From Candidatus Omnitrophota bacterium (GTDB taxonomy: Bacteria; Omnitrophota; Gorgyraeia; Gygaellales; Profunditerraquicolaceae), in NCBI GenBank assembly GCA_043812955.1, contig JBDRLN010000061.1, positions 7,231 through 71,230 on the forward strand: a stretch of 64,000 bases of DNA, given 5' to 3'. The notes under the pieces were generated by a model, which made no database searches, was not told the origin of the DNA, and worked only from the letters and a program-made list of their open reading frames with translations. This document shows, piece by piece, positions 4,382 to 25,902 of this stretch; position 1 is the stretch's first letter; every line of letters begins with the position of its first letter. The translations under genes and the position numbers were made by a program.

Positions 4382-4408
4382 AATTCTCTACCTATACCTG
4401 TAAGATAT

Positions 4409-4463
4409 GGGGTCAGAATTATTTTTTACTTACATTTAGAATAAAAAAAATAATTCTGACCCC
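4409..4463. repeat. Family-A palindromic element, copy 2 (perfect 19-bp arms)
   Basis: GGGGTCAGAATTATTTTTT (4409-4427), a 17-nt loop, AAAAAATAATTCTGACCCC (4445-4463). It lies between the icd-like stop and the mdh start. Confidence 0.85.
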
Positions 4464-4470
4464 ATTATTT

Positions 4471-5553
4471 TTATTTAAGTTTCTTGATGATGGCGTCAGC
4501 CATTTCTTTTGTTCCTACTGCAGCAGGGTCTTTCGGAGATGGCCTTAAATCATAGGTTACGGATTTACCTTCAAACAATACTTCCTTAACCGCTGTTTCC
4601 AATCTATCTGCTGCCTTATCTTCTTTGATGTATCTTAACATTAAAACTCCGGAAAGAATCATAGCGGTAGGATTAACCTTATTCAAACCTTTATATTTAG
4701 GCGCTGAACCGTGGACCGGCTCAAACACTGCTATTTCCTGGCCGATATTCGCTCCCGGGGCAACCCCTAAACCTCCAACTAACCCAGCGCAAAGATCAGA
4801 TAGAATATCACCGTAAAGATTAGGCAAAACCAACAGATCGAAATTTAAAGGTTTTTGAACCAACTGCATAGCCATATTATCGACCAGCGCTTCCTCAAAG
4901 GCTATCCTGCCCTGATAGGAAACAGCTACTTCCCGAACAGTCTTTAAGAATAGTCCGTCGGTAAATTTCATTATATTGGCCTTAGTTACACAGGTTACTT
5001 TTTTACGCTTATTCTTCAGGGCATATTCAAAAGCAAACCTGGCTATTCTGTCGCTGGCAAACCTGGATATCGGTTTAATCGAGATTCCGGAATCAGGACT
5101 GATCTTTTTCTGGGAATAATCTTCTATCTGTTTGATGATTTTACGGGTATAGGGCTCGCCTTCCTCAAATTCAATCCCCGCGTAAAGGTCTTCGCTATTC
5201 TCCCTGATTATTACCAGGTCAACATCCTTATAGAATGACTTAACCCCGGGATAGTATTTCGCCGGACGCACACAAGCATATAAATCTAGCACCTGGCGCA
5301 AGGCCACATTTACCGAACGAAAACCGCCGGCGATAGGAGTAGTAATCGGCCCCTTAATGCAAATTTTATTCTTCTTTATTGACGCGATTGTTTCTTCAGG
5401 TAAAAGACAACCATGCTTTTCTTGTGCAACTTCTCCGGCATATCTTACTTCCCATTCGATTTTTACGCCCGTAGCCTCAATACAGCGCCGGGAGGCCTCG
5501 GTTATTTCCGGACCTGTTCCATCACCAGGTATTATTGTTATTTTATATGCCAT
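4471..5553 (-). CDS. Beta-decarboxylating dehydrogenase; best resembles NAD-dependent isocitrate dehydrogenase (homoisocitrate / isopropylmalate DH family)
   Basis: 360 aa. Motifs [41 protein letters not shown] and HGSAP, as in IDH3-type IDH/LeuB. Confidence 0.7.
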
Positions 5554-5566
5554 CTTTAACCTGCTC

Positions 5567-5597
5567 CACCCCGTAGGTGTATTACACCTACGGGGTG
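5567..5597. repeat. Family-B hairpin, copy 1 (CACCCCGTAGGTGT-att-ACACCTACGGGGTG)
   Basis: Perfect 14-bp stem with a 3-nt loop, 14 nt upstream of the icd-like ATG. A twin lies at 18387-18417. Confidence 0.85.
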
Positions 5598-5619
5598 TAA
5601 ATTAGACTTCTAAATATAC

Positions 5620-6123
5620 TTATACTTTAGGCAGATTTCCATGCCTCTTGATGTATTTCACAATGCCGCCTTCTTTTAATAATTCTTGCATAAATCCCGG
5701 CAACGGTTTAATCTCCAGATAGATATTTTTGGTAGTATTCCAGACTTTTCCGGCATCCAGGTCTAATTCAATAATATCCCCTGGGCTTATCTTGTCGGTA
5801 TCAGTCTCCACTAAAAGCAGGCCTATGTTAAAACTGTTCCGGAAGAATATCCGGGCAAATGATTTTGCCAATATCGCGATAATTCCCGACTCTTTTATAA
5901 CTAAAGGCGCCTGCTCGCGACTTGAACCCATTCCGAAATTATTTCCCGCTACCAGTATAGACTGGCCGGGAATTATCTTTTTTGGAAAATCCGGGTCAAT
6001 ATCCTCCATTATATGTTTGGCTAATTCTTTTAGGTCGGTAATAGAGAATTTATACCTTCCCGAGATAATAACATCAGTATTAATATTGTCGCCTATTTTA
6101 ATTGTCTTGCCTTTGATAATCAT
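5620..6123 (-). CDS. leuD: 3-isopropylmalate dehydratase small subunit (LeuD / aconitase-family swivel domain, short archaeal type)
   Basis: 167 aa, MIIKGKTIKIGDNINTDVIISGRY..., typical LeuD type 2. Confidence 0.8.
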   Translation of the reverse strand: MIIKGKTIKIGDNINTDVIISGRYKFSITDLKELAKHIMEDIDPDFPKKIIPGQSILVAGNNFGMGSSREQAPLVIKESGIIAILAKSFARIFFRNSFNIGLLLVETDTDKISPGDIIELDLDAGKVWNTTKNIYLEIKPLPGFMQELLKEGGIVKYIKRHGNLPKV

Positions 6124-6132
6124 AACTTTATT

Positions 6133-6186
6133 GGGGTCAGAATTATTTCTTCTTTATTATACTTAGAAAAAAATAATTCTGACCCC
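6133..6186. repeat. Family-A palindromic element, copy 3
   Basis: GGGGTCAGAATTATTTCTTC ... GAAAAAAATAATTCTGACCCC, with one mismatch. It lies between the pilT stop and the leuD start. Confidence 0.8.
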
Positions 6187-6193
6187 AATTCCC

Positions 6194-7240
6194 TTATAGT
6201 TGCCTAAACTCTTCAATATTCTTGGCCTTGGACATAGCCATTTCCAAAGTAATAATTCCGCTCTGGTACATCTCTTTTAAACATTTATCCATTGTCCTCA
6301 TCCCGTATTGGCTCCCAGTCTGCATCAAAGTAGGGATTTGCTCGATCTTTTGCTCACGGATAAGGTTTCTTATGCCTGAGGTGGCAATCATTATCTCAGT
6401 GGCTAAAACCCTCCCCCTTCCTGAGGCTTGCGGAAGTAGCAATTGAGAAATTACACCCTGCAAACAATCGGATAACTGTAATTTAACCTGAGCCTGCTGG
6501 TGCGGCGGAAATACATCTATTATCCTTTCTATAGTCTGCGGCGCGTCAGGCGTATGCAAAGTTGCTAAAACAAGATGTCCGGTCTCCGCGGCTGTAAGAG
6601 TAGTGGCGATAGTCTCAAGGTCGCGCATTTCTCCTACTACTATAACATTAGGATCCTGCCGCAACGCATGACGCAAGGAATCAGCAAAAGAGCGGGTATC
6701 AGCATAAATCTCTCTCTGTTTAATAACGGCCTTCTTATTCGAATGAATAAATTCAATCGGATCTTCAATACACATTATTAAGCATTCCCTCTCTTTATTA
6801 ATAAGATCGATCATTGCTGCTAAAGTAGTAGTCTTGCCTACTCCGGTAGGCCCGGTTACTAAAACCAGGCCATTAGGCTTACGGGCTAATTCAATAGCTA
6901 TAGGAGGCAAGCCTACATCTGCCATGATCGGAATTTTAATGGGGATTCGCCTAAAAGCAGCCTCTACTGAATTTTTCTGCATATGTACATTTACCCTGAA
7001 CCTGTCTAAACCCGGTAAGGCCAGAGAAAAATCCAGCTCCAGGTCCCGTTCAAATACTTCTTTCTGGACGTCACTTAAAACACTATAAATTACTTTCTTA
7101 AGGATCTCCTTGTTAAAAACCGGCAGGATTGTCCTTTGCAGTTTTCCGTCAATACGTAATATTGGCGGCTCATTATCGGTGAAATGCAAGTCAGAAGCTT
7201 GTTTTTCTATACATAATTCCAGCAAATCCCGTATTTCCAT
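6194..7240 (-). CDS. pilT: Type IV pilus retraction ATPase PilT/PilU family
   Basis: 348 aa. MEIRDLLELCIEKQASDLHF start, Walker A GPTGVGKTTT, PilT-like C-terminal region. Confidence 0.85.
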   Translation of the reverse strand: MEIRDLLELCIEKQASDLHFTDNEPPILRIDGKLQRTILPVFNKEILKKVIYSVLSDVQKEVFERDLELDFSLALPGLDRFRVNVHMQKNSVEAAFRRIPIKIPIMADVGLPPIAIELARKPNGLVLVTGPTGVGKTTTLAAMIDLINKERECLIMCIEDPIEFIHSNKKAVIKQREIYADTRSFADSLRHALRQDPNVIVVGEMRDLETIATTLTAAETGHLVLATLHTPDAPQTIERIIDVFPPHQQAQVKLQLSDCLQGVISQLLLPQASGRGRVLATEIMIATSGIRNLIREQKIEQIPTLMQTGSQYGMRTMDKCLKEMYQSGIITLEMAMSKAKNIEEFRQL

Positions 7241-7252: not shown

Positions 7253-8509
7253 CTATTTAAGATACTTTCGGGGATCAGCTATTCTGCCTTCAATAGCTGA
7301 CGAGGCAACAGTTGCCGGAGAAGCCAGGTAGATATAAGCGTTTGGGTTACCCATTCTTCCCTTAAAATTACGATTAGCGGTAGATATGACTACTTCTGCG
7401 TCTGCCGGCACGCCGTTATGAGTCCCTACACATGGCCCGCAACCCGGGGCAACTACTACTGCTCCGGATTTAACCAATATATCTATAATCCCGGTTTTTA
7501 AGGCTTCCAGGAATATACTCCTGGAAGCCGGAGCGACAATAAATTTAACCCTGGAAGAGACTTTTCGGGATTTTAATATTAAGGCGGCAATTTTTAAATC
7601 AGCCAGCCGGCCATTAGTGCAAGTTCCCAAGAATGCCTCATTTATCTGTATATTTTTTAATTTGTCTACATCCGCAGTTGTATCTACGTTGTGGGGTATA
7701 CAGACTTGGGGTTTAAGTTTAGAGATATCCAACTCTATTGTATGACAATATTCAGCGTCCCGATCAGGAGTAATTATACTGATCGTTTTTTTATTTTTCA
7801 AACGCGGCCTTAACCAGGCAATAGTTTTTTTATCCTGGGGCATAAAACCCGCCTTAGCCCCCATCTCAACCACCATATTACAGAATGTAAAACGGCCATC
7901 AATATCTAATTTAGCGATAACCGGGCCAGAGAATTCCACAGCCTTGTAAGTAGCCCCATTAGCCCCTATTTTGGCGATAATATGAAGAATGATATCCTTA
8001 GCAAAGATACCCCTGGGTATTTTACCTTTAACGATAATTTTTATGGTCTGGGGCACTTTAAACCAATTTTTTCCGGTTGCTAAAGCTACGGCCAAATCCG
8101 TAGACCCTACCCCGGTTGAAAAAACACCTAACGCTCCGTAAGTACAGGTATGCGAATCCGCTCCCAGAACTAAGTCGCCGGGCAATATATTACCGGATTC
8201 AGGTATTACCTGATGGCATACTCCGCAGCCTACATCATAAAGATCGGACTTAAAATCAACAGCAAAAGCGCGCATCTTCTTATGCACCCTGGATACGCCC
8301 GCGTTAGGAGAAGGGGCGCTATGATCAATAACCATACAAAACCTTACTTTTAATTTATTTATTCCCAGTTCTTTTACCCGGTCAATTATGATTGAAGTTG
8401 TGCCATCCTGGCCAAAGGTAAAATCAACTTTGCATACGGCAAAATCCCCCGCCTTTAAATCCCGGCCGGAATGCTTACTTAATATTTTTTCGGCAATGGT
8501 TTTTCCCAT
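7253..8509 (-). CDS. leuC: 3-isopropylmalate dehydratase large subunit (LeuC / homoaconitase-type aconitase family)
   Basis: 418 aa, MGKTIAEKILSKHSG... Fe-S ligand cysteines in CGPCVGTHNG-type motifs. Confidence 0.8.
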   Translation of the reverse strand: MGKTIAEKILSKHSGRDLKAGDFAVCKVDFTFGQDGTTSIIIDRVKELGINKLKVRFCMVIDHSAPSPNAGVSRVHKKMRAFAVDFKSDLYDVGCGVCHQVIPESGNILPGDLVLGADSHTCTYGALGVFSTGVGSTDLAVALATGKNWFKVPQTIKIIVKGKIPRGIFAKDIILHIIAKIGANGATYKAVEFSGPVIAKLDIDGRFTFCNMVVEMGAKAGFMPQDKKTIAWLRPRLKNKKTISIITPDRDAEYCHTIELDISKLKPQVCIPHNVDTTADVDKLKNIQINEAFLGTCTNGRLADLKIAALILKSRKVSSRVKFIVAPASRSIFLEALKTGIIDILVKSGAVVVAPGCGPCVGTHNGVPADAEVVISTANRNFKGRMGNPNAYIYLASPATVASSAIEGRIADPRKYLK

Positions 8510-12835: not shown

Positions 12836-12853
12836 TTTATTTCCTCCTTATAT

Positions 12854-12920
12854 CGGTTTTCGGTTTACGGTTTTCAGTTTACGGTATTGGCCGCTAACCG
12901 ATAACCGCTAACCGATAACC
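12854..12920. repeat. Family-D element, copy 1: tandem CGGTTTACGG-type units followed by complementary CCGATAACCG-type units
   Basis: cggttttcggtttacggttttcagtttacgg ... ccgctaaccgataaccgctaaccgataacc. Left and right halves are imperfect reverse complements. It sits just upstream of the rpsM SD. Confidence 0.75.
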
Positions 12921-13304: not shown

Positions 13305-13417
13305 ACTCTCCTCGAACACAATTATGCGTCGTAGACGCATTCAGTGAGATGCCGCTTGCGGCGCGAGCACTATTATGCATCGTAAAACGCATCTAACGAG
13401 ATCCCGCCGTAGCGGGA
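13305..13417 (-). other. GC-rich multi-hairpin leader between map and infA
   Basis: Four consecutive small palindromes: ATGCGTCGTAGACGCAT, GCCGCttgCGGCG, ATGCATCG/CGCATC and CCCGCcgtaGCGGG. The surrounding genome is AT-rich. Confidence 0.5.
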
Positions 13418-14164
13418 CTATAAACAGGTTAAAATTTCAGCTTCTTTTTCAGTAACTGCTACCGTATGCTCGAAATGCGCGGAAGGCATTCCATCAACTG
13501 CAACTGCTGTCCACCCGTCGCTCAAAACCCGGCAATCCAATTTGCCCATATTCACCATTGGCTCAATCGCTAAAACCATCCCGGGTTTTAAAATATCTCC
13601 CCGGTTAGGCTGGCCAAAATTAGGTATTTCCGGTTCTTCGTGAAGCTGCCTGCCTATGCCATGGCCGACAAACTGCCTGACTATTGAAAATCCGTTCTTT
13701 TCCACATATTGCTGAATAGCATAAGATATATCCGAAAGATTATTATTTGTCCTAGCCTGTTTTATGCCGAAAATTAAAGATTTTCTGGTTACATCTATGA
13801 GCTTTTTTGCCTGAGAGCTAATTTTACCTACTCCTACCGTAACCGCCATATCTGAGAAATAACCTTTATACTTTATGCCTACATCTAGGCTTACGATATC
13901 GCCATCTTTTATTTGCCTGTCTTTAGGGATACCGTGAACAATTTCTTCGTTTATTGATATACAAATATCTTCCGGATAACCCCGGTAACCTTTAAACGCT
14001 GAAGCTACCCCTTGTGCTTCTATATACCTGCCGGCTAAATCATTGATCTGTCTTGTGGTTATCCCCGGCTTTACGCTCTCTCGCAATCTATTAACTATCC
14101 CCGCTATTATCCTGCCTGCCTCGCGCATGGCTTGCAAATCTTGAACGGATTTTATCGGGATCAT
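13418..14164 (-). CDS. map: Methionine aminopeptidase type I
   Basis: 248 aa, MetAP-I fold with the metal-ligand D/D/H/E/E pattern. Confidence 0.9.
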   Translation of the reverse strand: MIPIKSVQDLQAMREAGRIIAGIVNRLRESVKPGITTRQINDLAGRYIEAQGVASAFKGYRGYPEDICISINEEIVHGIPKDRQIKDGDIVSLDVGIKYKGYFSDMAVTVGVGKISSQAKKLIDVTRKSLIFGIKQARTNNNLSDISYAIQQYVEKNGFSIVRQFVGHGIGRQLHEEPEIPNFGQPNRGDILKPGMVLAIEPMVNMGKLDCRVLSDGWTAVAVDGMPSAHFEHTVAVTEKEAEILTCL

Positions 14165-14169
14165 TGCTA

Positions 14170-14811
14170 TTATCTTATAACCTTGAAGATCTCATTTAAG
14201 ACCGGCTCTGCCTCAGCATCAGCCTTAATCTTAATTAATCTATCCGTGATGCTATAATAATCAATAAGACAAGTCACCTCCTGGCGATAAACCTCTAAGC
14301 GTTTCTTGATAGTCTCTTCTTTATCATCGCTTCTTTGATAGAGCTCGCCCCCGCAATGGTCGCAAACCATACTTTTTTTGGGAGGCATATTCTTAACGTG
14401 AAAATTAGCTGAGCAAAACCTACAGACCAGCCTTCCGGTAATACGCTGGATTATTACCGGTTCACTAGCATCCAAGTAAATAACTTTATTGATGCTGCTT
14501 CTCTTATCCTCCAACACCTCGTCCAGCCTTTTAGCCTGAGTAAGATTACGAGGATATCCGTCTAATATAAACCCTTTTTCGATATCCGGCTGATCCAATC
14601 TATCAATCAACATTTGAGTAACCAACTCATCCGGTACCAGCGCCCCCTTATTCATAAAATCTTTGGCTTGCGTACCTAAGGAAGTATTATTCGCCACATT
14701 CTGCCTTAATAGGTCTCCGGTAGAGATATGGGGCGATTTAATTTTTTCAGCGACTCTTTTTGCCTGTGTCCCCTTGCCCGCCCCCGGAGGCCCCAGCATG
14801 ATAATATTCAT
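14170..14811 (-). CDS. adk: Adenylate kinase (Zn-finger lid type)
   Basis: MNIIMLGPPGAGKGTQ P-loop. Lid motifs CRFC...CDHCGG. Confidence 0.9.
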   Translation of the reverse strand: MNIIMLGPPGAGKGTQAKRVAEKIKSPHISTGDLLRQNVANNTSLGTQAKDFMNKGALVPDELVTQMLIDRLDQPDIEKGFILDGYPRNLTQAKRLDEVLEDKRSSINKVIYLDASEPVIIQRITGRLVCRFCSANFHVKNMPPKKSMVCDHCGGELYQRSDDKEETIKKRLEVYRQEVTCLIDYYSITDRLIKIKADAEAEPVLNEIFKVIR

Positions 14812-14857
14812 ATATATTAATTGTTTGATTTAAATCTTCAATCTACAATCTGCACTG

Positions 14858-16204
14858 CTATCTTCTACCCTTGATTCTAGCGCCCTTAATAAAACCTTCA
14901 TAGTTGTGCATAACTAAGTGTGATTCAATCTGCTTTACCGTATCCAGCATTACCCCTACCACAATTAATACACTGGTTCCTCCGGCAAAAGAAGCAACTA
15001 AATATGGCACCTTTAGCCAAGCCATAATAAAATCCGGCAGGATCGCTATGATTGCTATAAAAATAGCACCGGCTAAGGTAATTCGGGTCATTACAAAATC
15101 CAGGTATTCCGAGGTTGGATTACCCGGCCGGATGCCCGGGATAAACCCCCCGTATTTTTTCATATTCTCGGAAATATCTATCGGATTAAAGACAATCGCG
15201 GTATAAAAATAACAGAAAAAAATAATTAAAAGCGAAAAAACTACAGTATATAGCAAATGACCCCTAACTAAATTCTGGGCCCACATCTGAAATGCCGGAT
15301 TAGGTATAAATGACGCCAAGGTTGCCGGAAAAAGTATTATTGACTGGGCAAAAATAATGGCGATTACTCCTGAAGTATCTACTTTTAAAGGAATATAAGT
15401 GGATTGACCGCCGTAAATCTTTCTGCCTACCACGCGGCGGGCATATTGAACCGGTATTTTTCTCTGGCCTTGAGTAATCATAATGACCGAGAAAACTACC
15501 GCGCATAATAAAACTGCCATCACCAGAATAGTTAAAGGCTGGATCTGCCTGCGGGCGGGTGAAAAAGGAGAAATTAAAACCCATAACTGAGCGATTGCCG
15601 CCGGGATACGTGAGATTATGCCGGCAGTAATTACTAATGATATGCCGTTACCAATACCTCTCTCCTGTATCTGCTCGCCTAACCACATGATAAAAATAGT
15701 GCCGGTGGTTAAAGTAAATACCGTCAATATCCGAAACCCGATCCCTGGCTGCATCACTATTTTTAATCCTTCAAACCGAGCCGGATTCTCCAACCACATA
15801 GCAATAAAAAAAGACTGAATCAACGCCAGTACCACTGTGCCGCAACGGGTAAACTGGTTTATCTTTTCATAACCAGCTTTGCCTTCTTTGGCAATTTTTT
15901 CCAATTGAGGAATAACTGCCGTCAAAAGCTGCATAATGATTGAAGCTGAAATATAAGGCATGATCCCTAAAGCAAAAATAGTCAGCCTCTCCATAGCGCC
16001 GCCGGAGAACATATTCATTATGCCAAAGAGCGTACCACCCTGGGTCTTAGCTATACGGTTAAAGAATTCACCCAGAGCCACCCCATCAATTCCGGGGGTA
16101 GGAACATAACAACCAACGCGGTAAACCGCGATCAAGATTCCGGTAATAATCAGCCTGCGCTTTAAATCCGGTATTTTAAAAGAATTGACTAACGCGCTAA
16201 GCAT
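14858..16204 (-). CDS. secY: Preprotein translocase SecY
   Basis: 448 aa, ten predicted TM segments. It sits in the spc-operon position. Confidence 0.9.
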   Translation of the reverse strand: MLSALVNSFKIPDLKRRLIITGILIAVYRVGCYVPTPGIDGVALGEFFNRIAKTQGGTLFGIMNMFSGGAMERLTIFALGIMPYISASIIMQLLTAVIPQLEKIAKEGKAGYEKINQFTRCGTVVLALIQSFFIAMWLENPARFEGLKIVMQPGIGFRILTVFTLTTGTIFIMWLGEQIQERGIGNGISLVITAGIISRIPAAIAQLWVLISPFSPARRQIQPLTILVMAVLLCAVVFSVIMITQGQRKIPVQYARRVVGRKIYGGQSTYIPLKVDTSGVIAIIFAQSIILFPATLASFIPNPAFQMWAQNLVRGHLLYTVVFSLLIIFFCYFYTAIVFNPIDISENMKKYGGFIPGIRPGNPTSEYLDFVMTRITLAGAIFIAIIAILPDFIMAWLKVPYLVASFAGGTSVLIVVGVMLDTVKQIESHLVMHNYEGFIKGARIKGRR

Positions 16205-16467
16205 TAATAACCTCTGGTATAATCTTCAGGTATAAATCTTAGGGATTATACCTGATTACTGAGATTAATAAAGATTACTGCGATTAAACCATTAATCGCC
16301 TTATTAGACAACTTTGTTACTAAAGTTTAGTAATAACCCTATCGGTTATAGAGTCTCTATTTTTAATCTCTGTAATCTCACTTTTCCCGCTAGTCGCGGG
16401 ATCCCGCCAGATAAGAGATTATTGAGCGGGATAATCATTGTAATCAGACATCCTTACTTCTTTCTCA
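16205..16467 (-). repeat. Family-C structured spacer (263 nt) between rplO and secY
   Basis: It shares its whole architecture with the rpsL-rpsG spacer at 29797-29961 (8-bp GACATCCT...AGGATGTC hairpin, then AGATTACAGAGAT, then an ~85-nt block). A 100-nt insert with overlapping GC palindromes is unique to this copy. Confidence 0.8.
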
Positions 16468-16980
16468 TTATAGGATGTCTATTTTACCGCCTGTATTTTT
16501 TATCTTCTCCTGAGCCTTTTTAGAAAAGGCATGGGCATAAATTATCTTCGCTGCCTTAAGCTCGCCATTGCCCAGTATCTTTACAGGCAAAGATTTACTT
16601 TTGATAAAGCCTTTTTCCAGCATTAACGCCGGATTGATCATATCTTCTTTGACCTTGGTTAAAACCTCCAGATTAACTACCTGATATACTTTCGGGGATC
16701 TGCTATGGAACCCGCGTTTGGGCATCTTACGGATAAGTGGAGACTGGCCTCCTTCGAATCCCAGATAAGTACCAGGGCCTGAACGCGAAGTCGCGCCTTT
16801 ACTTCCCCGGGTTGAAGTCTTTCCATGCCCCGAGCCTGCTCCCCGGCCTAAAAGCTTTCTCTTCTTATGGGAACCATGAGGCGCTTTTAGGTTATGCAGC
16901 CCGATTTTTTTCAGATCCACATTTGTTTTTTGTTTTATTTCAGGTTGTTGAACCGCTATTGTTCTTTTAGTCTTGAGCAT
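16468..16980 (-). CDS. rplO: Ribosomal protein L15
   Basis: L15 core GRGAGSGHGKTSTRGSKG. The ATG follows the rpsE stop directly (aagggaaaaaaaTAAATG). A ~20-aa N-terminal extension makes the start uncertain. Confidence 0.8.
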   Translation of the reverse strand: MLKTKRTIAVQQPEIKQKTNVDLKKIGLHNLKAPHGSHKKRKLLGRGAGSGHGKTSTRGSKGATSRSGPGTYLGFEGGQSPLIRKMPKRGFHSRSPKVYQVVNLEVLTKVKEDMINPALMLEKGFIKSKSLPVKILGNGELKAAKIIYAHAFSKKAQEKIKNTGGKIDIL

Positions 16981-17439
16981 TTATTTTTTTCCCTTTAAAT
17001 CTCCTAAAGCTACCATAGTAGCCTTGATTACGTTAATAGGATTATTAGATTTTAAAGATTTAGTCAGGATATCCTTGATTCCACAAGCCTCGCATACTGC
17101 CCTGACCGGGCCGCAGGCGATTACTCCTGTTCCTTCGGAAGCCGGCTTTAAAAGAACCAAGGCCCCGCCATACTTACCCAGAACTTCGTGAGGGATACTT
17201 GAGTTTTCCACTCCAATCTTAACTAAATCTTTTTTAGCCCGGCCCAGCCCTTTACGTATGGCATCGGCAACCTCGTTTGCCTTACCTAAAGCAAAGCCCA
17301 CCCGGCCGTTCCTATCCCCGACAACCACCAGGGCGCTGAAAGACATATTCTTCCCGCCCTTAGTTACCTTGGTAACCCTGTTGATCGAAACTATCTTCTC
17401 GCTTAACTCTGATTGCTGTTGAATATTCATTTCGCGCAT
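16981..17439 (-). CDS. rpsE: Ribosomal protein S5
   Basis: 152 aa, S5 dsRBD and C-terminal domain. Confidence 0.9.
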
Positions 17440-17802
17440 TTAAAACTCCAATCCTGCTTTTCTTAAGGAATCGGCAAAAGCCTTGACCCTTCCGTGATAT
17501 AAATAACCAGCCCGGTCAAAAACAATTTTTTTTATCCCCTTTTCAACTGCCCGCCTGGCAAACACTTCCCCGAAAAACTCCGCGGCCTTAATGTTTCCCG
17601 GAGCGGGAAATTTTGCCTTTATTTCTTTATCCAGAGTCGATAAAGAGAATACCGTATTATTTGATGTATCATCGACCAACTGGGCAAATAAATTCTTCAA
17701 ACCCCGGTTTAGCACTAAACGAGGGCGTTCGCTATTGCCTTTTATACGCACGCGAATTCGCTTATGCCTTCCTATTTGTTTTATCAATTTTTTATTTTTC
17801 AT
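17440..17802 (-). CDS. rplR: Ribosomal protein L18
   Basis: 120 aa, ...FDRAGYLYHGRVKAFADSLRKAGLEF. Confidence 0.9.
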   Translation of the reverse strand: MKNKKLIKQIGRHKRIRVRIKGNSERPRLVLNRGLKNLFAQLVDDTSNNTVFSLSTLDKEIKAKFPAPGNIKAAEFFGEVFARRAVEKGIKKIVFDRAGYLYHGRVKAFADSLRKAGLEF

Positions 17803-17803
17803 A

Positions 17804-18352
17804 TTACTTTCCGCCAGATGCCTGGGCCTTTCCTACTTTTTTCTTTACGTATTCTCCCAAATAACGCACGCCTTTGCCCTTATAGGGTTCAGGCGGGTAT
17901 ACCGAACGTATCTCAGCAGCCAGCTCGCCGACTTTTTCCTTGTCAATCCCCCAAATCACAATCTGAGTTAGCTTAGGGGCCTCTAACTTTATCCCCTCAG
18001 GTATATTAAAAATTACCGGATGAGAAAATCCCAAATTCATAGTCAGGGTATTCCCCTGAACTACGGCTTTAAAACCCACACCGTTTATCTCCAGCTCCTT
18101 GACATAGCCTTCAGTCACACCCTTAAGCATGTTCCCAACCAGAGCCCTGACTAAGCCCTGCTGGGCCTTATCCAGTTTTGTATTCCCCGCGCGGGTAACG
18201 AAAACCTGATTATCCTTGACTTCCAGGCCAATCCTATCGCTAAAGGTCCGGGCCAATTTACCTTTTGGGCCTTCAATAGAAATAAAACTCCCTTTTATCT
18301 CTACCTTAGTATCTTTAGGTAGGCTTACTGGCTTTCTTCCGATTCTTGACAT
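17804..18352 (-). CDS. rplF: Ribosomal protein L6
   Basis: 182 aa, MSRIGRKPVSLPKDTKVEIKG... Confidence 0.9.
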   Translation of the reverse strand: MSRIGRKPVSLPKDTKVEIKGSFISIEGPKGKLARTFSDRIGLEVKDNQVFVTRAGNTKLDKAQQGLVRALVGNMLKGVTEGYVKELEINGVGFKAVVQGNTLTMNLGFSHPVIFNIPEGIKLEAPKLTQIVIWGIDKEKVGELAAEIRSVYPPEPYKGKGVRYLGEYVKKKVGKAQASGGK

Positions 18353-18386
18353 GAAGCTTACTCCTTTACCTTTTTATTGAACACTA

Positions 18387-18417
18387 CACCCCGTAGGTGG
18401 AGTCCACCTACGGGGTG
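18387..18417. repeat. Family-B hairpin, copy 2 (CACCCCGTAGGTGG-agt-CCACCTACGGGGTG)
   Basis: Perfect 14-bp stem between rpsH and rplF. It differs from copy 1 by a compensatory T:A to G:C change at the loop-closing pair. Confidence 0.85.
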
Positions 18418-18426
18418 GAAATGGTA

Positions 18427-18822
18427 TTACCAGATATACCCAATGACCTCGCCGCCGGCCCTTTGTTCCCGGGCTTCCTTATCCGTCAAAATACCTTTAG
18501 ATGTCGAAATAATCGCCAAACCTCTGCCCCGCAAAACATACGGAATTTTATCATGGGTAACATATTTACGCAACCCCGGCCTGGATACGCGTTTTATACC
18601 GCTGATTACGCATTTCTTACCGCTGTATTTTAGATAGACCCTTAAAGAACCCTGTTTTTTATCCTCGATTAATTTAAAATTGTCTATGTATTCTTCTCTC
18701 TTTAATATCTCCAGAATACATTTAACAACCTTACAAGCAGGAATATCCAAATTCTCTTTTTTAGCCATCATCGCGTTTCTTATGATAGTAAAAGCATCAG
18801 CTATAGAATCTGTCCTAGACAT
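18427..18822 (-). CDS. rpsH: Ribosomal protein S8
   Basis: 131 aa, [17 protein letters not shown]... Confidence 0.9.
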
Positions 18823-18848
18823 TTATCTTATTTCTCCTTTAGTTTTAC

Positions 18849-19034
18849 TTACCAACTGGATTTCTTGATGCCAGGGATCAAACCCTGCCAGGCTAATTCC
18901 CTGAAACATATCCGGCAGAGCGCAAATCTCCTTAAGTACCCGCCTGAGCGGCCGCAGATGCGGCAACGGTTATATTCCCGGGTAGAAAACTTCTTTTTTC
19001 CCTTCCATCTGTTTATCTGCGATGTCTTAGCCAT
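18849..19034 (-). CDS. rpsN: Ribosomal protein S14 type Z (zinc-binding, 61 aa)
   Basis: [20 protein letters not shown] Zn ribbon. Confidence 0.9.
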
Positions 19035-19112
19035 ATCTTTAAATCATTCTCCTTATTGTTCCTTGCCTTTTCCCGACCCTGACTTTGAATAGTCGGGATC
19101 CCGCTTAATTTT

Positions 19113-19667
19113 TTATTGATCCTTGCGGGAAAAAGGCATTCCAAATAATCTCAAGAATTCTCTGGCCTCTTCTTCGGTCCTGGCATTTTTAATTACAAAG
19201 GTTATATCCATTCCCTGGACCCGGGAAATCCGATCATAATCTATTTCCGGAAAAATACCCTGTTCCGAAAGCCCCAGGGTATAATTACCCGCTTTATCAA
19301 AAGACCTGCTTGGCACCCCCCGGAAATCCCGGATACGCGGAAGAGCTACATTTATCAGCCTATCCATAAATTCATACATCATTGTCTTCCTTAAAGTAAC
19401 TTTACAGCCTATAGGTTGCCCATCCCTAATCTTAAAATTAGCAATAGCCTTCTTGGCCCGGAGCATAATCGGCTTTTGCCCGGTAATAGTGGCTAATTCG
19501 TCCATCGCCTTCTCTAATATTTTAATATCCCCGAGCGCCTCGCCTACGCCCATATTTACCACAATCTTCTCAATCTTGGGGCACGCGTTCTTATTTTTAA
19601 ACTTAAAGGTCTCCATCATCTTCGGAATTATTTCATTGCGATACTTTTCTAGCAATCTCGGCGTCAT
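19113..19667 (-). CDS. rplE: Ribosomal protein L5
   Basis: 184 aa, L5 family. AAGGAGAA lies upstream. Confidence 0.9.
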
Positions 19668-19681
19668 AATATAAGTCCTTA

Positions 19682-19993
19682 TTATATGGTTTCTTTACAA
19701 TTTTTACAAAATCTTATCTTGGTCTTATCTTCTAGGAACTTAAAACCTACGCGGGCCGCCCGACTGCAACCTTTGCAGAAATACATAACATTAGCTATAT
19801 TTAACGGCCTCTCTATAGAAACAATCCCCCCCTGTTGATTGGTCTGAGTCTTACGCATTGCCTTTTTGGCCAGGTTTATGCCCTCAACAATAACCCGGCC
19901 TTCGCCAGCCAATACGCTTAATACCTTGCCTTTTTTGCCTTTGTCCTTGCCTTTAACTACCTGAACAATATCGCCTTTTTTAATCTTTAACAT
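19682..19993 (-). CDS. rplX: Ribosomal protein L24
   Basis: 103 aa, [24 protein letters not shown] (KOW). Confidence 0.9.
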
Positions 19994-20147
19994 GTCTTTT
20001 CCTTATATAGTTATTGCTGAAAAACCCAGCAATAACTTTATTTTGGAGATTTTTAAAAAGATTACAGAGATTTATCCGAGGATGTTTAATCTTGTAATCT
20101 GTATTTTAATCGCTGAAATCAAGTTAACACTGCTTTTTCAGTGTTAA
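19994..20147 (-). repeat. Structured rplN-rplX spacer: twin 10-bp hairpins (GTTAACACTG/CAGTGTTAAC and GTTATTGCTG/CAGCAATAAC) flanking family-C-like GATTACAG motifs
   Basis: Seen directly. The first hairpin follows the rplN stop and is followed by UUGAUUU. The second ends 16 nt before the rplX ATG. Confidence 0.7.
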
Positions 20148-20516
20148 CTATATGACTTCCGGGGCCAGGGAAATAATCTTAGTAAAATTCTTCTCGCGCA
20201 ATTCTTTGGCTACCGGGCCAAACACCCTTGTCCCCCTGGGATTCAACTGGGCGTCAATAATCACAATAGCATTACGGTCAAATCGTAGTATCGAACCATC
20301 AGCGCGCCGAATTGCCTCTTTAGTTCTGACTACTACCGCTTTAGCCACCTCTCCCTTTTTAACCACCGCGTCAGGAGATGATTCCTTAACACTGACATTA
20401 ATAATATCGCCGACCACGGCATTCATTGCGTTCTTTTTTCCCAATACTCCTATAAGGGAAGCCCTTTTTGCTCCGGTATTATCCGCTACGTCTAAAATAC
20501 TGCGCAATTGAATCAT
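20148..20516 (-). CDS. rplN: Ribosomal protein L14
   Basis: 122 aa, [17 protein letters not shown]... Confidence 0.9.
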
Positions 20517-20794
20517 TTTACCTCATCCTTTAATTCAACATTGGGTATCTTGAATTTTTTCAAGATCTCCAGGACCCGGAAACGTTTATCTTTAGATATA
20601 GGCCTGGTCTCTTCGATCTTAACCGTATCGCCTACCTTAGCCATATTATGCTCATCATGGGCCTTAAATTTATTAAACCGTTTCATGATCTTGCCGTACT
20701 TGGGATGCTTACTAAGATGCATAATCTTCACTATAACCGTTTTCATCATTTTGTCGCTGATAACCGTGCCTGTAAATTCTTTGCGCTTACCCAT
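20513..20794 (-). CDS. rpsQ: Ribosomal protein S17
   Basis: 93 aa, S17 OB fold, overlaps rplN by 4 nt. Confidence 0.9.
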
Positions 20795-20828
20795 TTATTT
20801 TCTCTTTCTTTCTTTTGAATAATCCGTA

Positions 20829-21014
20829 TTATTTCTTTTCGCTTAAAATTGTTTTTATCCTGACAATATCCCTTTTAATTAATGAGAACCTGTGCGGTTT
20901 TTCTACCTGGCCGCCGTAACGCTGTAGGTTCATCTTATACAAATCCTCTTTAAGGGTTTTTTCTTTATTTATTAATTCTTCTCTGGATAGATTACGCAGC
21001 TCTTGTATCTTCAC
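20829..21014 (-). CDS. rpmC: Ribosomal protein L29 (GTG start)
   Basis: MKIQELRNLSREEL... The start codon GTG is at rc 21012-21014, embedded in the family-E hairpin arm. Confidence 0.85.
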   Translation of the reverse strand: MKIQELRNLSREELINKEKTLKEDLYKMNLQRYGGQVEKPHRFSLIKRDIVRIKTILSEKK

Positions 21015-21110
21015 CCCGCACCTTCCTTTTTTTCATAATTCTAAAACAGTTTGCCTTAAGGAATCTAATCTTTTGGAAGGTGCGGGGTTCATCCAGCACC
21101 TTCCTACTTA
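21014..21110 (-). repeat. Family-E element, copy 1: 13-bp GC hairpin (CCCCGCACCTTCC / GGAAGGTGCGGGG) plus a third CACCTTCC copy
   Basis: Plus 21014-21026 is the reverse complement of 21075-21087, and the motif recurs at 21097-21104. The mRNA 3' arm contains the rpmC SD and the first base of its GUG. Confidence 0.8.
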
Positions 21111-21518
21111 TTATTTATGCGCCCTGGTTACAAATTTAGTTTTAAATGGTAATTTATAAGCTATTAACCTGAAACACCTGCGGGCATACTCTTCCGGAAT
21201 ACCGCTTAACTCAAATAGTATTCTGCCTCTTTTAATAACACATACCCAATGATCAATATCGCCTTTGCCTTTACCCATACGTACTTCTGCCGGTTTTTTG
21301 GTTATAGATTTATCCGGAAAAACCCTAATCCATAGCCTCCCGCCTTTATGTAATTGCCTGGTCAGAACTACCCGACAGGCCTCAATCGTATTGTTCTTAA
21401 GCCAGCCGTTAACTAAAACCTTTAATCCAAACTCACCAAATGCCAGCTCCGCACCCCTGGTGGCTATTCCCCGGCGCTGTCCTTTTTGCAACTTCCTATA
21501 TTTTACTCTTTTGGGCAT
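21111..21518 (-). CDS. rplP: Ribosomal protein L16
   Basis: L16 homology from [17 protein letters not shown]. The track start at 21527 (MAL...) is also possible. Confidence 0.85.
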
Positions 21519-21556
21519 TAAAGCCATATCAATCTCGCTTTTGGTTTGTTTTTATT

Positions 21557-22252
21557 TTAAATACTCGTTTTTTTATTTATTGCTGTATCGGCCGATATAC
21601 GCAAATCTCTGGCTGCCGCCTCTTTACCCAGAATATCGCCTTTATAAAGCCAAACCTTCACTCCGATCAAACCATAAGTAGTAAAGGCCTCGGAAAATCC
21701 ATAATCAATATCCGCGCGTAAAGTATGCAGGGGAACCTTGCCCTGCTTATAAGTCTCAGTCCGGCACATCTCAGCGCCGTTTAACCTTCCGGCAGTGGAT
21801 ATCTTTACGCCTTTAGCCCCCGCGGACATGGTTTGTTCAATCGCCCTTTTTACCGCCCTGCGGAAAGCCACCCTTTTCTCTAGCTGCATTGTAATATTCT
21901 CAGATACCAGCTGGGCATCCATAGCCGCATTTTTGATCTCCTCTATATCTATAGAGATCTCGCGTTTAACCATACTGTTAATATCTTCCCTTAATTTTTC
22001 AATATCTGCGCCATGGCGGCCGATGATTATACCCGGCCTGGCTGACTGAATCCTAATCTTAACCTTTTCAGTCAACCTCTCAATTATTACTCTGGCAACT
22101 GCCGCTTGTTTAAACTTAGTTTTAATGAATTTACGGATGTTAAAATCCTCAAACACAAACTTAGCATAATCCTTTTTTCCGGCGAACCAGCGGCTATGCC
22201 AATTTTTAGTGAAACCTATCCTTAATAACAGCGGGCTGCATTTCCTTCCCAT
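21557..22252 (-). CDS. rpsC: Ribosomal protein S3
   Basis: 231 aa, KH domain ...[17 protein letters not shown]... Confidence 0.9.
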
Positions 22253-22256
22253 TATT

Positions 22257-22589
22257 TTATCCTTTCAAATCCAGCTCAATTTTAACGTGACAAGTTCTTC
22301 TCTTTATCGGTGTAGCCCTGCCGAATGCCGCGGCCTTATACCTCTTCCAAGCCGGCCCGACATTACAAATAATCATGGATATATATAATTGCCGCGCCTC
22401 GAAACCCTTTATTTTTGCATTAGCGATAGCGCTACGCAATACTTTTATTAAACTTTCTTTAGGTCTTTTATTTAAATTAACCAAGATCGCCTCCGCTTCC
22501 TGAACATCCTTATTCCGGATTAAATTCATGACTTCGCGCATCTTGGGTGGCGAAATTTTTATATGCTTATTTTCAGCTTTTACAATCAT
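22257..22589 (-). CDS. rplV: Ribosomal protein L22
   Basis: 110 aa, L22 family. Confidence 0.9.
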
Positions 22590-22598
22590 TTGATTATT

Positions 22599-22725
22599 AG
22601 ATAGTAGTTAGTAGGCAATATGTAGGAATAACCTAATCCCTTTTTTGCTACTTACATTGTTATTTATTTTTTTTAGTAGGCTTCTTTGGGATACCCTAAT
22701 CCCTACCTACTACATGCTACATACT
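22599..22725. repeat. Family-F element, copy 1 (CCCTAAT...CCTACCTACTACAT[G/A]CTA core with GTAG/CTAC-rich inverted arms)
   Basis: A 140-bp spacer between rpsS and rplV, which are normally adjacent genes. The arms are agtagttagtaggcaatatgtagg ... cctacctactacatgctacatact, and ccctaatccc appears twice. Confidence 0.75.
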
Positions 22726-22729
22726 GTTT

Positions 22730-23017
22730 TTAGGTCTTTTCGGCCGCCTTCTTGGCCTTGACACCGCCGTGCTTTCTGAATATCCGGCTGAAAGAAAACT
22801 CCCCTAATTTATGCCCAACCATATTCTCAGTCACAAATACCGGGATATGTTTTCTCCCGTCATATACCGCAAAGGTAAATCCCACAAAATCCGGTATGAT
22901 CGTTGAACGCCTGGACCAGGTCTTAATTGCCTGGCGTCCGCCGGAAATACGCATCCGGTCAACTTTTTTAATCAACTTCTCTTCTACAAACGGTCCTTTT
23001 TTTAATGAGCGCGGCAT
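22730..23017 (-). CDS. rpsS: Ribosomal protein S19
   Basis: 95 aa, [15 protein letters not shown]... Confidence 0.9.
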
Positions 23018-23023
23018 AGGCCT

Positions 23024-23857
23024 TTATCCTCTCCTTTTAATAATAAATTTATTGGAATATTTAGTCCGGTTGCGCGTCCGGTAACCTTTGGTCGGTTTGC
23101 CCCAAGGAGTTACGGGATGAGGATTACCCTGTCCCGACTTTCCTTCACCGCCGCCGTGCGGATGGTCTACCGGGTTCATCGCTAAACCTCTTACCCTAGG
23201 CATAAAACCTAACCAGCGGTTCCTTCCGGCCTTGCCGATATTAATCGCTCCATTTTCAATATTGCCTAACTGGCCTATTGTGGCATGGCAATCCAAATAA
23301 ATTAATCTTACCTCTCCTGAAGGAAGCTTTAAATGGGCACACGCGCCTTCTTTAGCCATAATCTGAGCGGATGTTCCCGCGCTTCTAACAATCTGCCCGC
23401 CCTTACCAGCAGTTAATTCGATATTATGGATCATTGTTCCTTGAGGAATATGCCTTAAGATCAGACAATTACCCACCTTGATTTCAGCCGACTTCTGATT
23501 AGAAGTAATAACTTCATCCCCGACTTTTAAACCAATAGGCGCCAGTATATATCTCTTTTCTTTATTCGGATATTCAACTAAAGCGATCCTGGCTGTCCGG
23601 TTAGGGTCATATTCAATAGCCAAAACCTTGGCCGGTGTATCCAGTATATTCCTTTTAAAATCAATTAACCTAAGCATCCGCTTATGCCCGCCGCCGCGCC
23701 ATCTGGCGGTAACCCGACCGTAATTATTCCTGCCACCGGTTTTCTTGATCGGCGTGATTAGGGATTTTTCCGGCTCGGTCTTGGTAATATCAGAAAAATC
23801 ATGGCCGTTCATAAAACGTCTTGAAGGTGTGGTTGGTCTGTATTTTTTTATTCCCAT
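23024..23857 (-). CDS. rplB: Ribosomal protein L2
   Basis: L2 homology from [14 protein letters not shown]. The 26-aa track extension overlaps the family-D repeat and is probably untranslated. Confidence 0.85.
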
Positions 23858-23866
23858 GTTTTGTCT

Positions 23867-23933
23867 CGGTTTGCGGTTTGCGGCTTTCGGGTTTCGGCCT
23901 AAAACTTTTCCCGTACACCGAACACCGATAACC
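23867..23933. repeat. Family-D element, copy 2
   Basis: cggtttgcggtttgcggctttcgggtttcgg ... cccgtacaccgaacaccgataacc. It sits between rplW and rplB. Confidence 0.75.
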
Positions 23934-23939
23934 AATTGT

Positions 23940-24218
23940 CTATGCGATTTCTATCTTTTGGCCCTTCTTTAGGGTAACTATCGCTTTTTTAAAATCAGGC
24001 TTCTTCCCATACTGATGCCTGACCCGGGTCAACTTTCCCGGGGATATAATCGTATTTACGCATTTAACTTTTACTTTATAAATCTCTTCTACCGCGTGTT
24101 TAATCTGAATCTTATTACCCGCTTTATCCACCAGAAAGAGGTATTTTCCGCCGGGTTCCTGCAAACTTGATTTTTCAGTCCTGATCAAAGCCTTGATTAT
24201 ATCATAAGAAGATATCAT
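23940..24218 (-). CDS. rplW: Ribosomal protein L23
   Basis: 92 aa. Confidence 0.9.
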
Positions 24219-24850
24219 TTATTGACCCTCTCTATTAATTCCTTAAGACCCTCCCTAGTAATGATTATTTTATCGGCATTCAGGATCTGATAAGTATTGG
24301 TGTTCCTGATCAAATCCAAAATCAAAGAATCTATATTATTAAACGCCATCTTTAATTCTTTATCTATTTTGTTTAATAAAATCAGAATTTTTACATCCGC
24401 TGATTTTAGCTTTAAATTCGTCAAAATCTTTGCTGCTTCCTTAGTCTTGGGCCCCTTAATTTTTAAATCATCCAGCAGCACTAAGCTATTTTCTTTAATC
24501 TTAGCTCCCACTACCGATTTTAAAGCGACTCTCCTAATTTTATCCGGAAGGGTATAAGAAAAATCCCTCGGGTGGGGCCCAAACACTACGCCGCCGTGAC
24601 GCCAGAGAGGCGAACGTATCGAACCTACCCTGGCCCGGCCGGTTCCTTTTTGTTTCCAGGGTTTCCTTCCGCCGCCGGAAACTTCACCTCTGGTTTTAGT
24701 CGAAGCCAGACCCTTGCGTTGATTTGCCAGGTAGCACTTAACCACCTGATGAATAGCGCCTTCGCTATTGCCTTCATTAAAAATTGAATCGTCCAAAGTA
24801 AACGTTTCAATTTCTTTTCCTTCAACATTATATACGGGTAGATTCATCAT
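24215..24850 (-). CDS. rplD: Ribosomal protein L4
   Basis: 211 aa. Confidence 0.9.
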   Translation of the reverse strand: MMNLPVYNVEGKEIETFTLDDSIFNEGNSEGAIHQVVKCYLANQRKGLASTKTRGEVSGGGRKPWKQKGTGRARVGSIRSPLWRHGGVVFGPHPRDFSYTLPDKIRRVALKSVVGAKIKENSLVLLDDLKIKGPKTKEAAKILTNLKLKSADVKILILLNKIDKELKMAFNNIDSLILDLIRNTNTYQILNADKIIITREGLKELIERVNK

Positions 24851-25524
24851 TTCTTTTTAGCTAGTTGTTTTGCTGTTTTTAAAGGAACTACAGGCGTAAC
24901 TTTTACCTTCTTCTTTATGGCGGTTTTGATTAACAAATAATTATCGTTATTCCCCGGCACAGCCCCTTTTATCGCCAATATATTGTTTTGCGCATCTACC
25001 TTGATTATCTCCAGGTTCTGGACTGTAGCCTTACGCATACCCATATGGCCGGGAAGATGATGGCCTTTCCATACCCTTCCCGGAGTAGTCGAAGAGCCCA
25101 TTGATCCTACCCGGCGATGAGAAGTTGAACCATGAGTCATCGGTCCTCCTTGCCAATGCCAGCGTTTCATTCCACCCTGAAAACCCTTGCCAATGCTAAT
25201 TCCAGACACATCCACAAAATCACCCGGCTTAAATATGTCTGCTTTTAATTCGTCTCCGACTTTATATTCTTTACCCGAATCCTTTTTAATATCGCGGATT
25301 AGCTTTTGGCAGACGATATTTAATTTCTTAAAATATCCGGATTGGGGTTTCTTAAGTTTTTTTTCGTTGATGACATCAAAACCCACCTGCAGGGATTTAT
25401 CCCTAACCGCTAAAACTGGACATGGCCCCGCTTCCACAACCGTGACCGGAACCATTACTCCCTCTTCGGTATAGATGTGCGTCATTCCAACTTTTTTTCC
25501 TAGTATGCTAATCATTTTATCCAA
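24847..25524 (-). CDS. rplC: Ribosomal protein L3
   Basis: 225 aa. Confidence 0.9.
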   Translation of the reverse strand: MDKMISILGKKVGMTHIYTEEGVMVPVTVVEAGPCPVLAVRDKSLQVGFDVINEKKLKKPQSGYFKKLNIVCQKLIRDIKKDSGKEYKVGDELKADIFKPGDFVDVSGISIGKGFQGGMKRWHWQGGPMTHGSTSHRRVGSMGSSTTPGRVWKGHHLPGHMGMRKATVQNLEIIKVDAQNNILAIKGAVPGNNDNYLLIKTAIKKKVKVTPVVPLKTAKQLAKKK

Positions 25525-25588
25525 TCAGTATAGGGAAAGAGTAATTGGTGATCTTTTATATTATCACTTAACTCTTATCCCTTAACAC

Positions 25589-25888: not shown

Positions 25889-25902
25889 ATTAATTTAGTC
25901 AG

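Follow-up and report, generated by a model that had tools for sequence, protein, structure and literature searches.

Two Perfect Hairpins in Operon Spacers of an Uncultivated Omnitrophota Bacterium Are Probably Copies of a Small Dispersed Palindromic DNA Repeat

Introduction

REP and REPIN sequences of Proteobacteria are short (~30–50 nt), GC-rich hairpin repeats in transcribed operon spacers, spread in many copies through the extragenic DNA of a genome. They are mobilized by RAYT (TnpA_REP), a Y1 HUH transposase whose gene typically has REPs on its flanks. The REP stem-loop itself measures ~20–40 nt, its stem is imperfect, and its 5′-foot is an unpaired GT[AG]G. Domesticated REPs act as functional mRNA elements in E. 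coli. MITEs, such as the Correia/NEMIS elements of Neisseria, RUP, ERIC/IRU and Nezha, are non-autonomous sequences of 100–300 bp with terminal inverted repeats. Rickettsia palindromic elements (RPEs) measure 100–150 bp, are found in Rickettsiales only, and can lie in frame within genes, adding a short peptide while the ORF stays intact. Hairpins between the genes of an operon may also be intrinsic terminators, in which a GC-rich stem is followed by a U-tract, or conserved, operon-specific autoregulatory sites. In E. coli, S8 is known to repress translation of the spc mRNA.

Here, we describe two hairpins from a 64,000-nt stretch of DNA (the window) of a Candidatus Omnitrophota bacterium, and the dispersed family to which they would belong. 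With REP/REPIN this family shares the short GC-rich hairpin (31-nt palindromes with a 14-bp stem in the window), the location in transcribed operon spacers, compensated stem variation, insertion polymorphism, a GTAG/CTAC tetranucleotide, occasional inverted doublets and a possible secondary role as mRNA stabilizer. It differs from REP/REPIN in its perfect stems, its seemingly low copy number, the presence of some copies inside ORFs, and the phylum. Furthermore, GTAG occupies stem positions 7–10, where it is paired with CTAC instead of forming an unpaired foot, and a RAYT gene was not found in the available sequence. The likeness to MITEs lies in a putatively non-autonomous character, two inverted arms (reaching AACCTTTTCC...GGAAAAGGTT in long forms) around a variable short center, co-transcription with flanking genes, presence/absence polymorphism at orthologous sites, and T/TA-rich junctions with a possible TA target duplication; the long forms, with 20–23 bp, would be RNase III-size duplexes as in Correia elements. 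In contrast to MITEs, the core is 31 nt and the insertion ~60 nt long, a parent IS is not known, there is only a candidate target-site duplication, and variable positions are always compensated, which simple decay of terminal inverted repeats would not give. As with RPEs, some family members add a short peptide in frame, although the intergenic window copies do not; the core is shorter (31–48 nt), its sequence is unrelated, and it matches no Rfam or otherwise known family. The hairpins lack the T-run of an intrinsic terminator and were not called by a terminator scan. They also differ from a conserved, operon-specific S8/spc element, being absent in relatives and present in non-ribosomal operons. 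These comparisons would place the element in the general kind of small dispersed palindromic repeats; membership of the REP/RAYT or MITE groups is not established, and size and sequence speak against the RPE group.

Results

The window has a GC content of 0.42 and carries housekeeping genes, almost all on the minus strand: the str/S10/spc/alpha ribosomal operons, rpoB/C-size genes, his genes, secDF, alaS and others. Homologues of its L6 and Icd proteins assign it to Candidatus Omnitrophota. An earlier, sequence-only reading of this DNA had described two 14-bp perfect hairpins that differ by a double change from T:A to G:C. The sequence bears out the hairpins at both sites, and the pairing-preserving change is indeed found at the loop-closing pair. 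Its wording of the second site needs amending: all the genes here lie on the minus strand, so copy 2 follows rpsH and precedes rplF. The features of the two sites are as follows.

5567–5597, minus-strand transcript of the leuD-like/icd-like operon: palindrome copy 1, CACCCCGTAGGTGT-ATT-ACACCTACGGGGTG, 14-bp perfect stem, ATT loop
5620–6123, minus strand: Aconitase_C/LeuD-like small-subunit gene, upstream of copy 1
5554–5619, minus strand: leuD-like/icd-like spacer, 66 nt, from the leuD-like stop (5620–5622) to the icd-like ATG
5554–5566, minus strand: one-sided family tail at copy 1, GAGCAGGTTAAAG, which with the last stem bases reads TGGAGCAGGTTA; family consensus TGGAAnAGGTTA
4471–5553, minus strand: isocitrate/isopropylmalate dehydrogenase (Iso_dh)-family, Icd-like gene, downstream of copy 1, ATG at 5553
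18387–18417, minus-strand transcript in the spc ribosomal-protein operon: palindrome copy 2, CACCCCGTAGGTGG-AGT-CCACCTACGGGGTG, 14-bp perfect stem, AGT loop
18427–18822, minus strand: rpsH (S8), upstream of copy 2, assigned by synteny with the Pfam-annotated contig L064
17804–18352, minus strand: rplF (L6), downstream of copy 2

Copy 1 lies 22 nt past the leuD-like stop and 13 nt ahead of the icd-like ATG. Its tail contains an SD-like GGAG/AGG and abuts this start codon (5553), and we infer that it may serve as the Shine–Dalgarno sequence. Copy 2 occupies the 74-nt rpsH–rplF spacer, 9 nt past the rpsH stop and 34 nt ahead of the rplF ATG; rplF's own SD, AAGGAG, falls outside the hairpin. The arms themselves hold an SD-like AGGUG and an anti-SD-like CACCU, a post-hoc resemblance on which we build no argument. 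As a further observation on the neighborhood of copy 1, a PilT-like T2SSE ATPase gene (6194–7240) lies between the aconitase-type large (7253–8509) and small (5620–6123) subunit genes, an arrangement kept in the relative L073 (4370–5416).

The two copies have 13 of 14 arm bases in common, the sole stem difference being the loop-closing pair (T:A vs G:C), and a repeat finder reports both formally as 15+1+15 palindromes. Within the window the 13-nt arm occurs in these two hairpins only, even with 2–3 mismatches permitted. All its other perfect short-loop hairpins are shorter, and when the window was simulated with a first-order Markov model (n = 30), stems reached at most 12 bp and usually none had 10 bp or more. 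The predicted RNA stability is ~−27 to −29 kcal/mol on either strand (z ~−4 to −5 vs shuffles), and no shuffled sequence folds as stably as either copy. A pair of perfect hairpins of this kind is far beyond chance.

Searches for known elements gave little. There is no T/U run on either strand beside either hairpin, and a terminator/promoter scan calls neither site. At the gathering threshold, Rfam finds two tRNAs only in the whole window, with no match to a ribosomal-protein leader; a permissive Rfam search of both sites returned chance-level matches to eukaryotic miRNA/lncRNA models only. Scanning viral contigs for the hairpin produced 0 matches.

The same junctions in close relatives are informative. 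The rpsH–rplF spacer, 74 nt long in the window, measures 15 nt in six contigs from the closest relative (GCA_018825985.1; L6 92% identical in amino acids; rpsH and rplF ~81–86% identical in nucleotides) and 9 nt in a more distant Omnitrophota contig (L070). In alignment A1 the coding flanks are near-identical, and one clean gap of ~60 nt holds the copy 2 hairpin:

18365–18426, minus strand: ~60-nt insertion relative to the closest relatives, TACCATTTC-hairpin-TAGTGTTCAATAAAAAGGTAAA

The insertion begins with a 5′ part, TACCATTTCC, that is complementary to the family tail, TGGAAATGGTA. When the empty site (L064) is compared with the filled one, GGTAA/TAA/TA appears at both edges, a possible target-site duplication, every reading of which needs a 1-nt indel. 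At the copy 1 site, the leuD-like and icd genes overlap (TAATG) in L073–L076, where Icd is 84–90% identical in amino acids, vs a 66-nt spacer in the window. In L077 (Icd 88%) this junction holds another insert, 96 nt long (862–957), made of AGAGC/AAAGC-type short units. Similar quasi-repetitive palindromes, composed of CGGTTTT/CGGTTAG-type units, occur in the window at 12851–12917 and 38241–38316. The 132 kb of syntenic relatives, which include ~30 kb syntenic to both window sites, contained no copy of the family. Both sites being empty in the closest relatives, the comparison shows the two copies as probable insertions gained after the split from the nearest sampled relatives; assignment of the gain to the window lineage follows from parsimony over few relatives. 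A view of the hairpins as conserved regulatory structures does not survive this comparison: both sites look like lineage-specific insertions of dispersed repeat copies.

Related hairpins were collected by scanning genomes for CACCCCGTAG-N9-15-CTACGGGGTG and metagenomes for CCCCGTAGGTG-N3-11-CACCTACGGGG, which together returned 63 loci (numbered here with the prefix L). Most matches on genome contigs of other phyla (Muribaculaceae, Oscillospiraceae and others) are ordinary terminator-like hairpins whose 10-nt stem agrees with the pattern by chance, and these were set aside. The relevant set comprises ~19 distinct copies in low-GC DNA (0.36–0.48), mostly on Omnitrophota contigs, several of them from Omnitrophica GWA2_41_15 and from Hainich groundwater assemblies. 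They have the core CCACCCCGTAGGTGG in common; this core of 13–15 nt is identical across unrelated loci and different genomes. A fuller consensus reads ~AACCTTTTCCACCCCGTAGGTGG(CC)-loop-(GG)CCACCTACGGGGTGGAAAAGGTT. Apices of 3–11 nt vary and are mostly self-complementary (GCC-GAA-GGC, GCC-TGC-GGC, GAC-GTAT-GTC, GAAAGCTTTC, GCCAATTGGC, T-CTT-A), and the extensions at the base are likewise variable yet complementary, giving total stems of up to 20–23 bp. A tail, TGGAAnAGGT(TA), accompanies most copies on at least one side, with T or TA after it in most of them; both window copies keep one side only. With this common asymmetric tail, the element extends beyond the hairpin itself.

The copies lie next to a variety of genes. 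Four of them (L028, L047, L048, L052) occupy an argB–argD spacer, and in L028 and L052, as in window copy 1, a stretch of 12–14 nt with an SD-like tail separates the end of the hairpin from the start codon. Other sites adjoin pyrC-like, ubiA-like, ndk, infB and cobalamin-methylase genes. A diverged variant, TTAACCGCGTAGGTCGCC-GTAG-GCGACCTACGCGGTT, follows argD in L047 (8747–8783), L028 (1375–1409) and L048 (2481–2515); its ~4 arm differences from the main core are all compensated, and a canonical copy precedes argD in the same operon. L046 carries two adjacent copies (2624–2696), 13 nt apart and with inverted loops (TCTTA/TAAGA), the first of which (2624–2654) is decayed, with uncompensated changes and a partly deleted right arm. 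The copies in L046 and L055 (1448–1478) lie amid short, GC-rich repeats (GCTCCGCT..., CTCGCGAAGACGG). The copy number is 2 per 64 kb in the window and ~2 strict matches in the GWA2_41_15 MAG.

Hairpins of a related type were also seen outside the phylum. The Ardenticatenaceae MAG CAYVQP01, a high-GC member of Chloroflexota, contains at least 11 copies of CACCCCGTAGGTCTCGCAGACCTACGGGGTG-type hairpins (L002, L006, L008–L010, L015, L021, L025, L038, L041). They form a REP-like family, have 12 nt of arm and nearly the same outer arm in common with the Omnitrophota family, and are often nested in a second inverted repeat (GACCCCGTAGGTCGCCCAA...TTGGGCGACCTACGGGGTC), which gives them a REPIN-like look. 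The likeness in the arm may reflect convergence or a common mobilizing enzyme.

For covariation, the 19 distinct copies were placed in a gapless alignment consisting of 8 flank nucleotides, the search-fixed 11-nt core, two apex nucleotides and a dummy loop. Pair counts at the variable positions are as follows.

Loop-closing pair, flagged earlier: G:C in 10 copies, U:A in 6, U:G in 2, unpaired in 1
Next apex pair: A:U in 6, C:G in 6, G:U in 1, U:A in 1, unpaired in 5
First pair outside the core (columns 8:38): A:U in 16, U:A in 2, C:G in 1
Second pair outside the core (columns 7:39): C:G in 16, U:A in 2, unpaired in 1

Of the 38 cells in the two pairs beyond the search-fixed core, 37 are Watson–Crick, and three pair types occur. 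With 0.188, the covariation score exceeds that of shuffles (0.088; none of 500 scored as high) and of slid controls (≤0.063), in an alignment that is synthetic, with a core fixed by ascertainment and copies that are related to each other. Variable stem pairs are Watson–Crick throughout except for two U:G cells, which flank loops of 6–11 nt, and thus give no specific sign of RNA. Complementarity at the variable positions is a genuine property of the family, and in this respect the earlier reading is supported. Uncompensated stem changes, which speak against it, occur in the one decayed copy of L046, and almost all other copies are perfect.

What this pattern means is a different matter. The sequence-only reading had taken the double change between two paralogous copies as direct evidence that secondary structure is under selection. 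As evidence of selection on RNA structure it does not hold, since DNA-level causes predict the same double change. A DNA palindrome would keep its pairing if it were read by a transposase recognizing single-stranded DNA hairpins, if one protein read both arms, or if repair proceeded by template switching, so covariation cannot separate RNA-level selection from such causes. The accompanying claim that the primary sequence is not under selection is wrong, given the identical 13–15-nt core. In the orthologous pair L047/L052, which is 90% identical, the loop center is the only change; with ~10% divergence, 34 unchanged stem bases have a probability of roughly 0.03, an observation that weakly fits constraint. 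We also considered symmetry running through the loop as a sign of a DNA palindrome and dropped it, since two of six triloop copies are complementary next to the center and two copies are loop-less, which is chance-like.

Three family copies lie in frame within long ORFs, which encode a PfkB kinase, a DUF362 protein and a CxxCxxCC protein. In the PfkB kinase (L053, 1060–1125) the palindrome encodes HVHPVGGLLPPTGW, and compared to PDB fructokinases the protein has ~10 extra residues exactly at the palindrome, in a β-hairpin before the GAGD motif. The palindrome in the DUF362 protein (L063, 7080–7140) encodes PPRRWPIGHLRGG and corresponds to six additional residues in a hypervariable loop relative to 12 of 12 aligned homologues, including one that is 88% identical. 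In the third protein (L001, 5170–5240; CxxCxxCC and LPG_synthase_C) the copy lies in the interdomain linker and encodes PPRRWPKATYGVE. Since the left arm contains TAG in one of three frames, only two frames are tolerated. These alignments indicate that the copies in the PfkB and DUF362 proteins are additions to the protein.

The window contains other inserts as well. Family A consists of hairpins with ~21-nt arms (GGGGTCAGAATTATTTTTT/AAAAAATAATTCTGACCCC) and a 16–17-nt center in operon spacers, at 2100–2160, 4407–4465 and 6130–6189 of the window and at 5422–5475 of L073. The copy in the pilT-like/leuD-like spacer is common to the relatives L073–L075; only the window has those that follow the lpdA-like gene and occupy the icd/mdh spacer. 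Family A is thus a second palindromic family with presence/absence polymorphism. Family C comprises imperfect inverted repeats of 33–43 nt (GGGACGGTTCTCAAACCAAAGCTAAAGTGTCCC and its inverse) at 29241–29313 and 55366–55458, in the fusA–rpsG spacer (after an EF-G-size gene) and a hisA/hisH-like spacer; no copies were found in the retrieved relatives. An insert of ~255 nt with several small hairpins inside separates rplO (L15) from secY (16205–16467). It takes the place of an overlap between the L15 stop codon and the ATG of secY, as seen in the relative L065. The window has an altered L15 C-terminus and still carries the old junction, GAGGTTATTAATGCTTAGC, where secY begins. Across 13400–27000, several ribosomal-protein spacers differ by 40–130 nt between the window and its closest relative (L064): S10–L3 measures 64 vs 198 nt, S19–L22 140 vs 229 nt, S3–L16 29 vs ~100 nt, and L14–L24 154 vs 116 nt. 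The spacers of both are far longer than those of L070, in which most junctions measure 0–20 nt. The other hairpin families and inserts thus behave like the two hairpins, and the junctions of core operons in this lineage often receive small inserts.

Discussion

The comparisons above make it probable that both hairpins belong to one small palindromic DNA repeat of REP/MITE-like character, a dispersed and non-autonomous element that circulates in Candidatus Omnitrophota. Insertion polymorphism, an identical core in unrelated contexts, additions within ORFs, a common tail, and the doublet with its decayed copy in L046 all point to a mobile repeat, as do the similar behavior of other palindrome families in the window and the lack of terminator features and of matches to known RNAs. 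Perfect stems and a core conserved between species are, however, also what purifying selection would lead one to expect.

As a mobile repeat, the element could have behaved as follows. The window copies would be short versions with a tail on one side only, tolerated at both junctions because of their shortness, the lack of a U-tract for termination, and a ribosome-binding site that they either spare or provide. They would be passively co-transcribed as very stable stem-loops in polycistronic mRNAs. The copying enzyme presumably recognizes a specific hairpin or inverted repeat, and would most plausibly be a transposase acting in trans that reads single-stranded DNA hairpins or terminal inverted repeats. 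Such recognition would explain why the arms stay both identical and complementary: sequence and pairing would be preserved by the copying mechanism, and not primarily by selection on each RNA. A candidate enzyme did not emerge from the sequence covered. Pfam searches of the window ORFs and of ORFs beside the hairpins revealed housekeeping proteins only, with no transposase, RAYT or parent IS, and E. coli RayT, used as a phmmer query on the six-frame ORFs of every retrieved locus (~0.6 Mb, a small part of any carrier genome), gave no match; these loci showed no IS either. Together with a candidate target-site duplication that requires a 1-nt indel, this is the main weakness of the mobile-repeat reading, and the seemingly low copy number also counts against it.

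Individual copies may have acquired effects of their own, which we mention as speculation. Copy 1 might uncouple translation at the formerly overlapping, presumably coupled leuD-like/icd junction, where its tail (GGAGCAGGTTAAAG-ATG) might supply the only SD-like sequence at the new icd spacer. Copy 2 might act as a barrier to 3′-exonucleases after rpsH, protecting the rpsH-proximal mRNA, and long forms of 20–23 bp might be cleaved by RNase III.

The reading that competes most directly takes the hairpin for a functional stem-loop of the RNA, under selection for structure and serving as stabilizer, processing site or translation-uncoupler in polycistronic mRNAs and recruited repeatedly. Several observations agree with it: the fold is very stable (~−27 kcal/mol, z ~−4 to −5), the window copies always lie in transcribed spacers of co-directional operons, stem variation is compensated over 19 copies, the stem is unchanged and the loop alone changed between the L047 and L052 orthologues, and three copies (window copy 1, L028, L052) end 12–14 nt before a start codon with an SD-like tail. 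Nevertheless, the hairpin must be dispensable in the closest relatives, which lack it in the same spacers, and copies inside ORFs make no sense for a role in operon spacers. Its primary sequence is conserved far beyond the needs of a generic stem, the G:U pairs within stems that would mark tolerance at the RNA level are absent, and there is no Rfam family. We therefore rate such a stem-loop as an unlikely primary explanation, bearing in mind that it and the mobile repeat are not mutually exclusive, as the domesticated REPs illustrate.

A duplex DNA site for a dimeric protein (a regulator, a nucleoid protein, or a gyrase- or IHF-type protein, as has been reported for some REPs) would also let the arms co-vary, because identical subunits read the half-sites. 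The perfect two-fold symmetry of both window copies (15+1+15), the strong conservation of the half-site across genomes, and the loop-less copies in L050 and L063, which are palindromic through the center, would suit such a site. It is nonetheless very improbable: the copies sit within operons and ORFs and not at promoters, an apex of 3–11 nt shifts half-site spacing and helical phase in a way that dimeric binders rarely tolerate, four of six triloop copies are non-complementary next to the center and most loops are asymmetric, and the site is missing in relatives.

An intrinsic terminator or attenuator, or an S8 autoregulatory site in the spc operon, would account for a GC-rich stable stem right after the rpsH stop codon, but appears effectively refuted by the sequence: neither strand has a T/U run and the scan calls neither site, termination between rpsH and rplF would remove essential downstream genes, an identical hairpin occurs in a metabolic operon, in the arginine operons of other genomes and in ORFs, the spc operons of relatives do without it, and Rfam holds no matching ribosomal-protein leader.

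Returning to the mobile repeat, a bolder version can be formulated, which as a whole we regard as quite unlikely. It posits an Omnitrophota-wide class of ultra-small (~30–55 nt) mobile palindromes whose asymmetric tail (GGAAnAGGTTA...ATG) delivers a ribosome-binding site, so that insertion turns coupled, overlapping gene pairs (leuD-like/icd; argB/argD in L028 and L052) into independently initiated ones; the class would be tolerated in protein loops and perhaps be moved by a hairpin-specific enzyme other than RAYT. If true, the element would be selfish, rewiring the translation of operons and extending proteins by peptide loops.

Conclusion

Searches of the literature for an earlier Omnitrophota palindromic repeat, or for the motif string, found nothing relevant; as far as this literature goes, the present work documents the first small palindromic repeat family in the phylum. 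The identical "covarying" hairpins that two operons of this uncultivated bacterium carry would be copies of a mobile repeat, as opposed to conserved riboregulators. Structure-based searches for RNAs in MAGs should therefore be read with caution: where the paralogous copies of a DNA palindrome covary, selection at the RNA level does not follow from this alone. Protein-coding loops and even the spc ribosomal-protein operon appear to have been invaded by the family, which could mark strain-level genome dynamics in Omnitrophota and may lead to the enzyme that mobilizes it.
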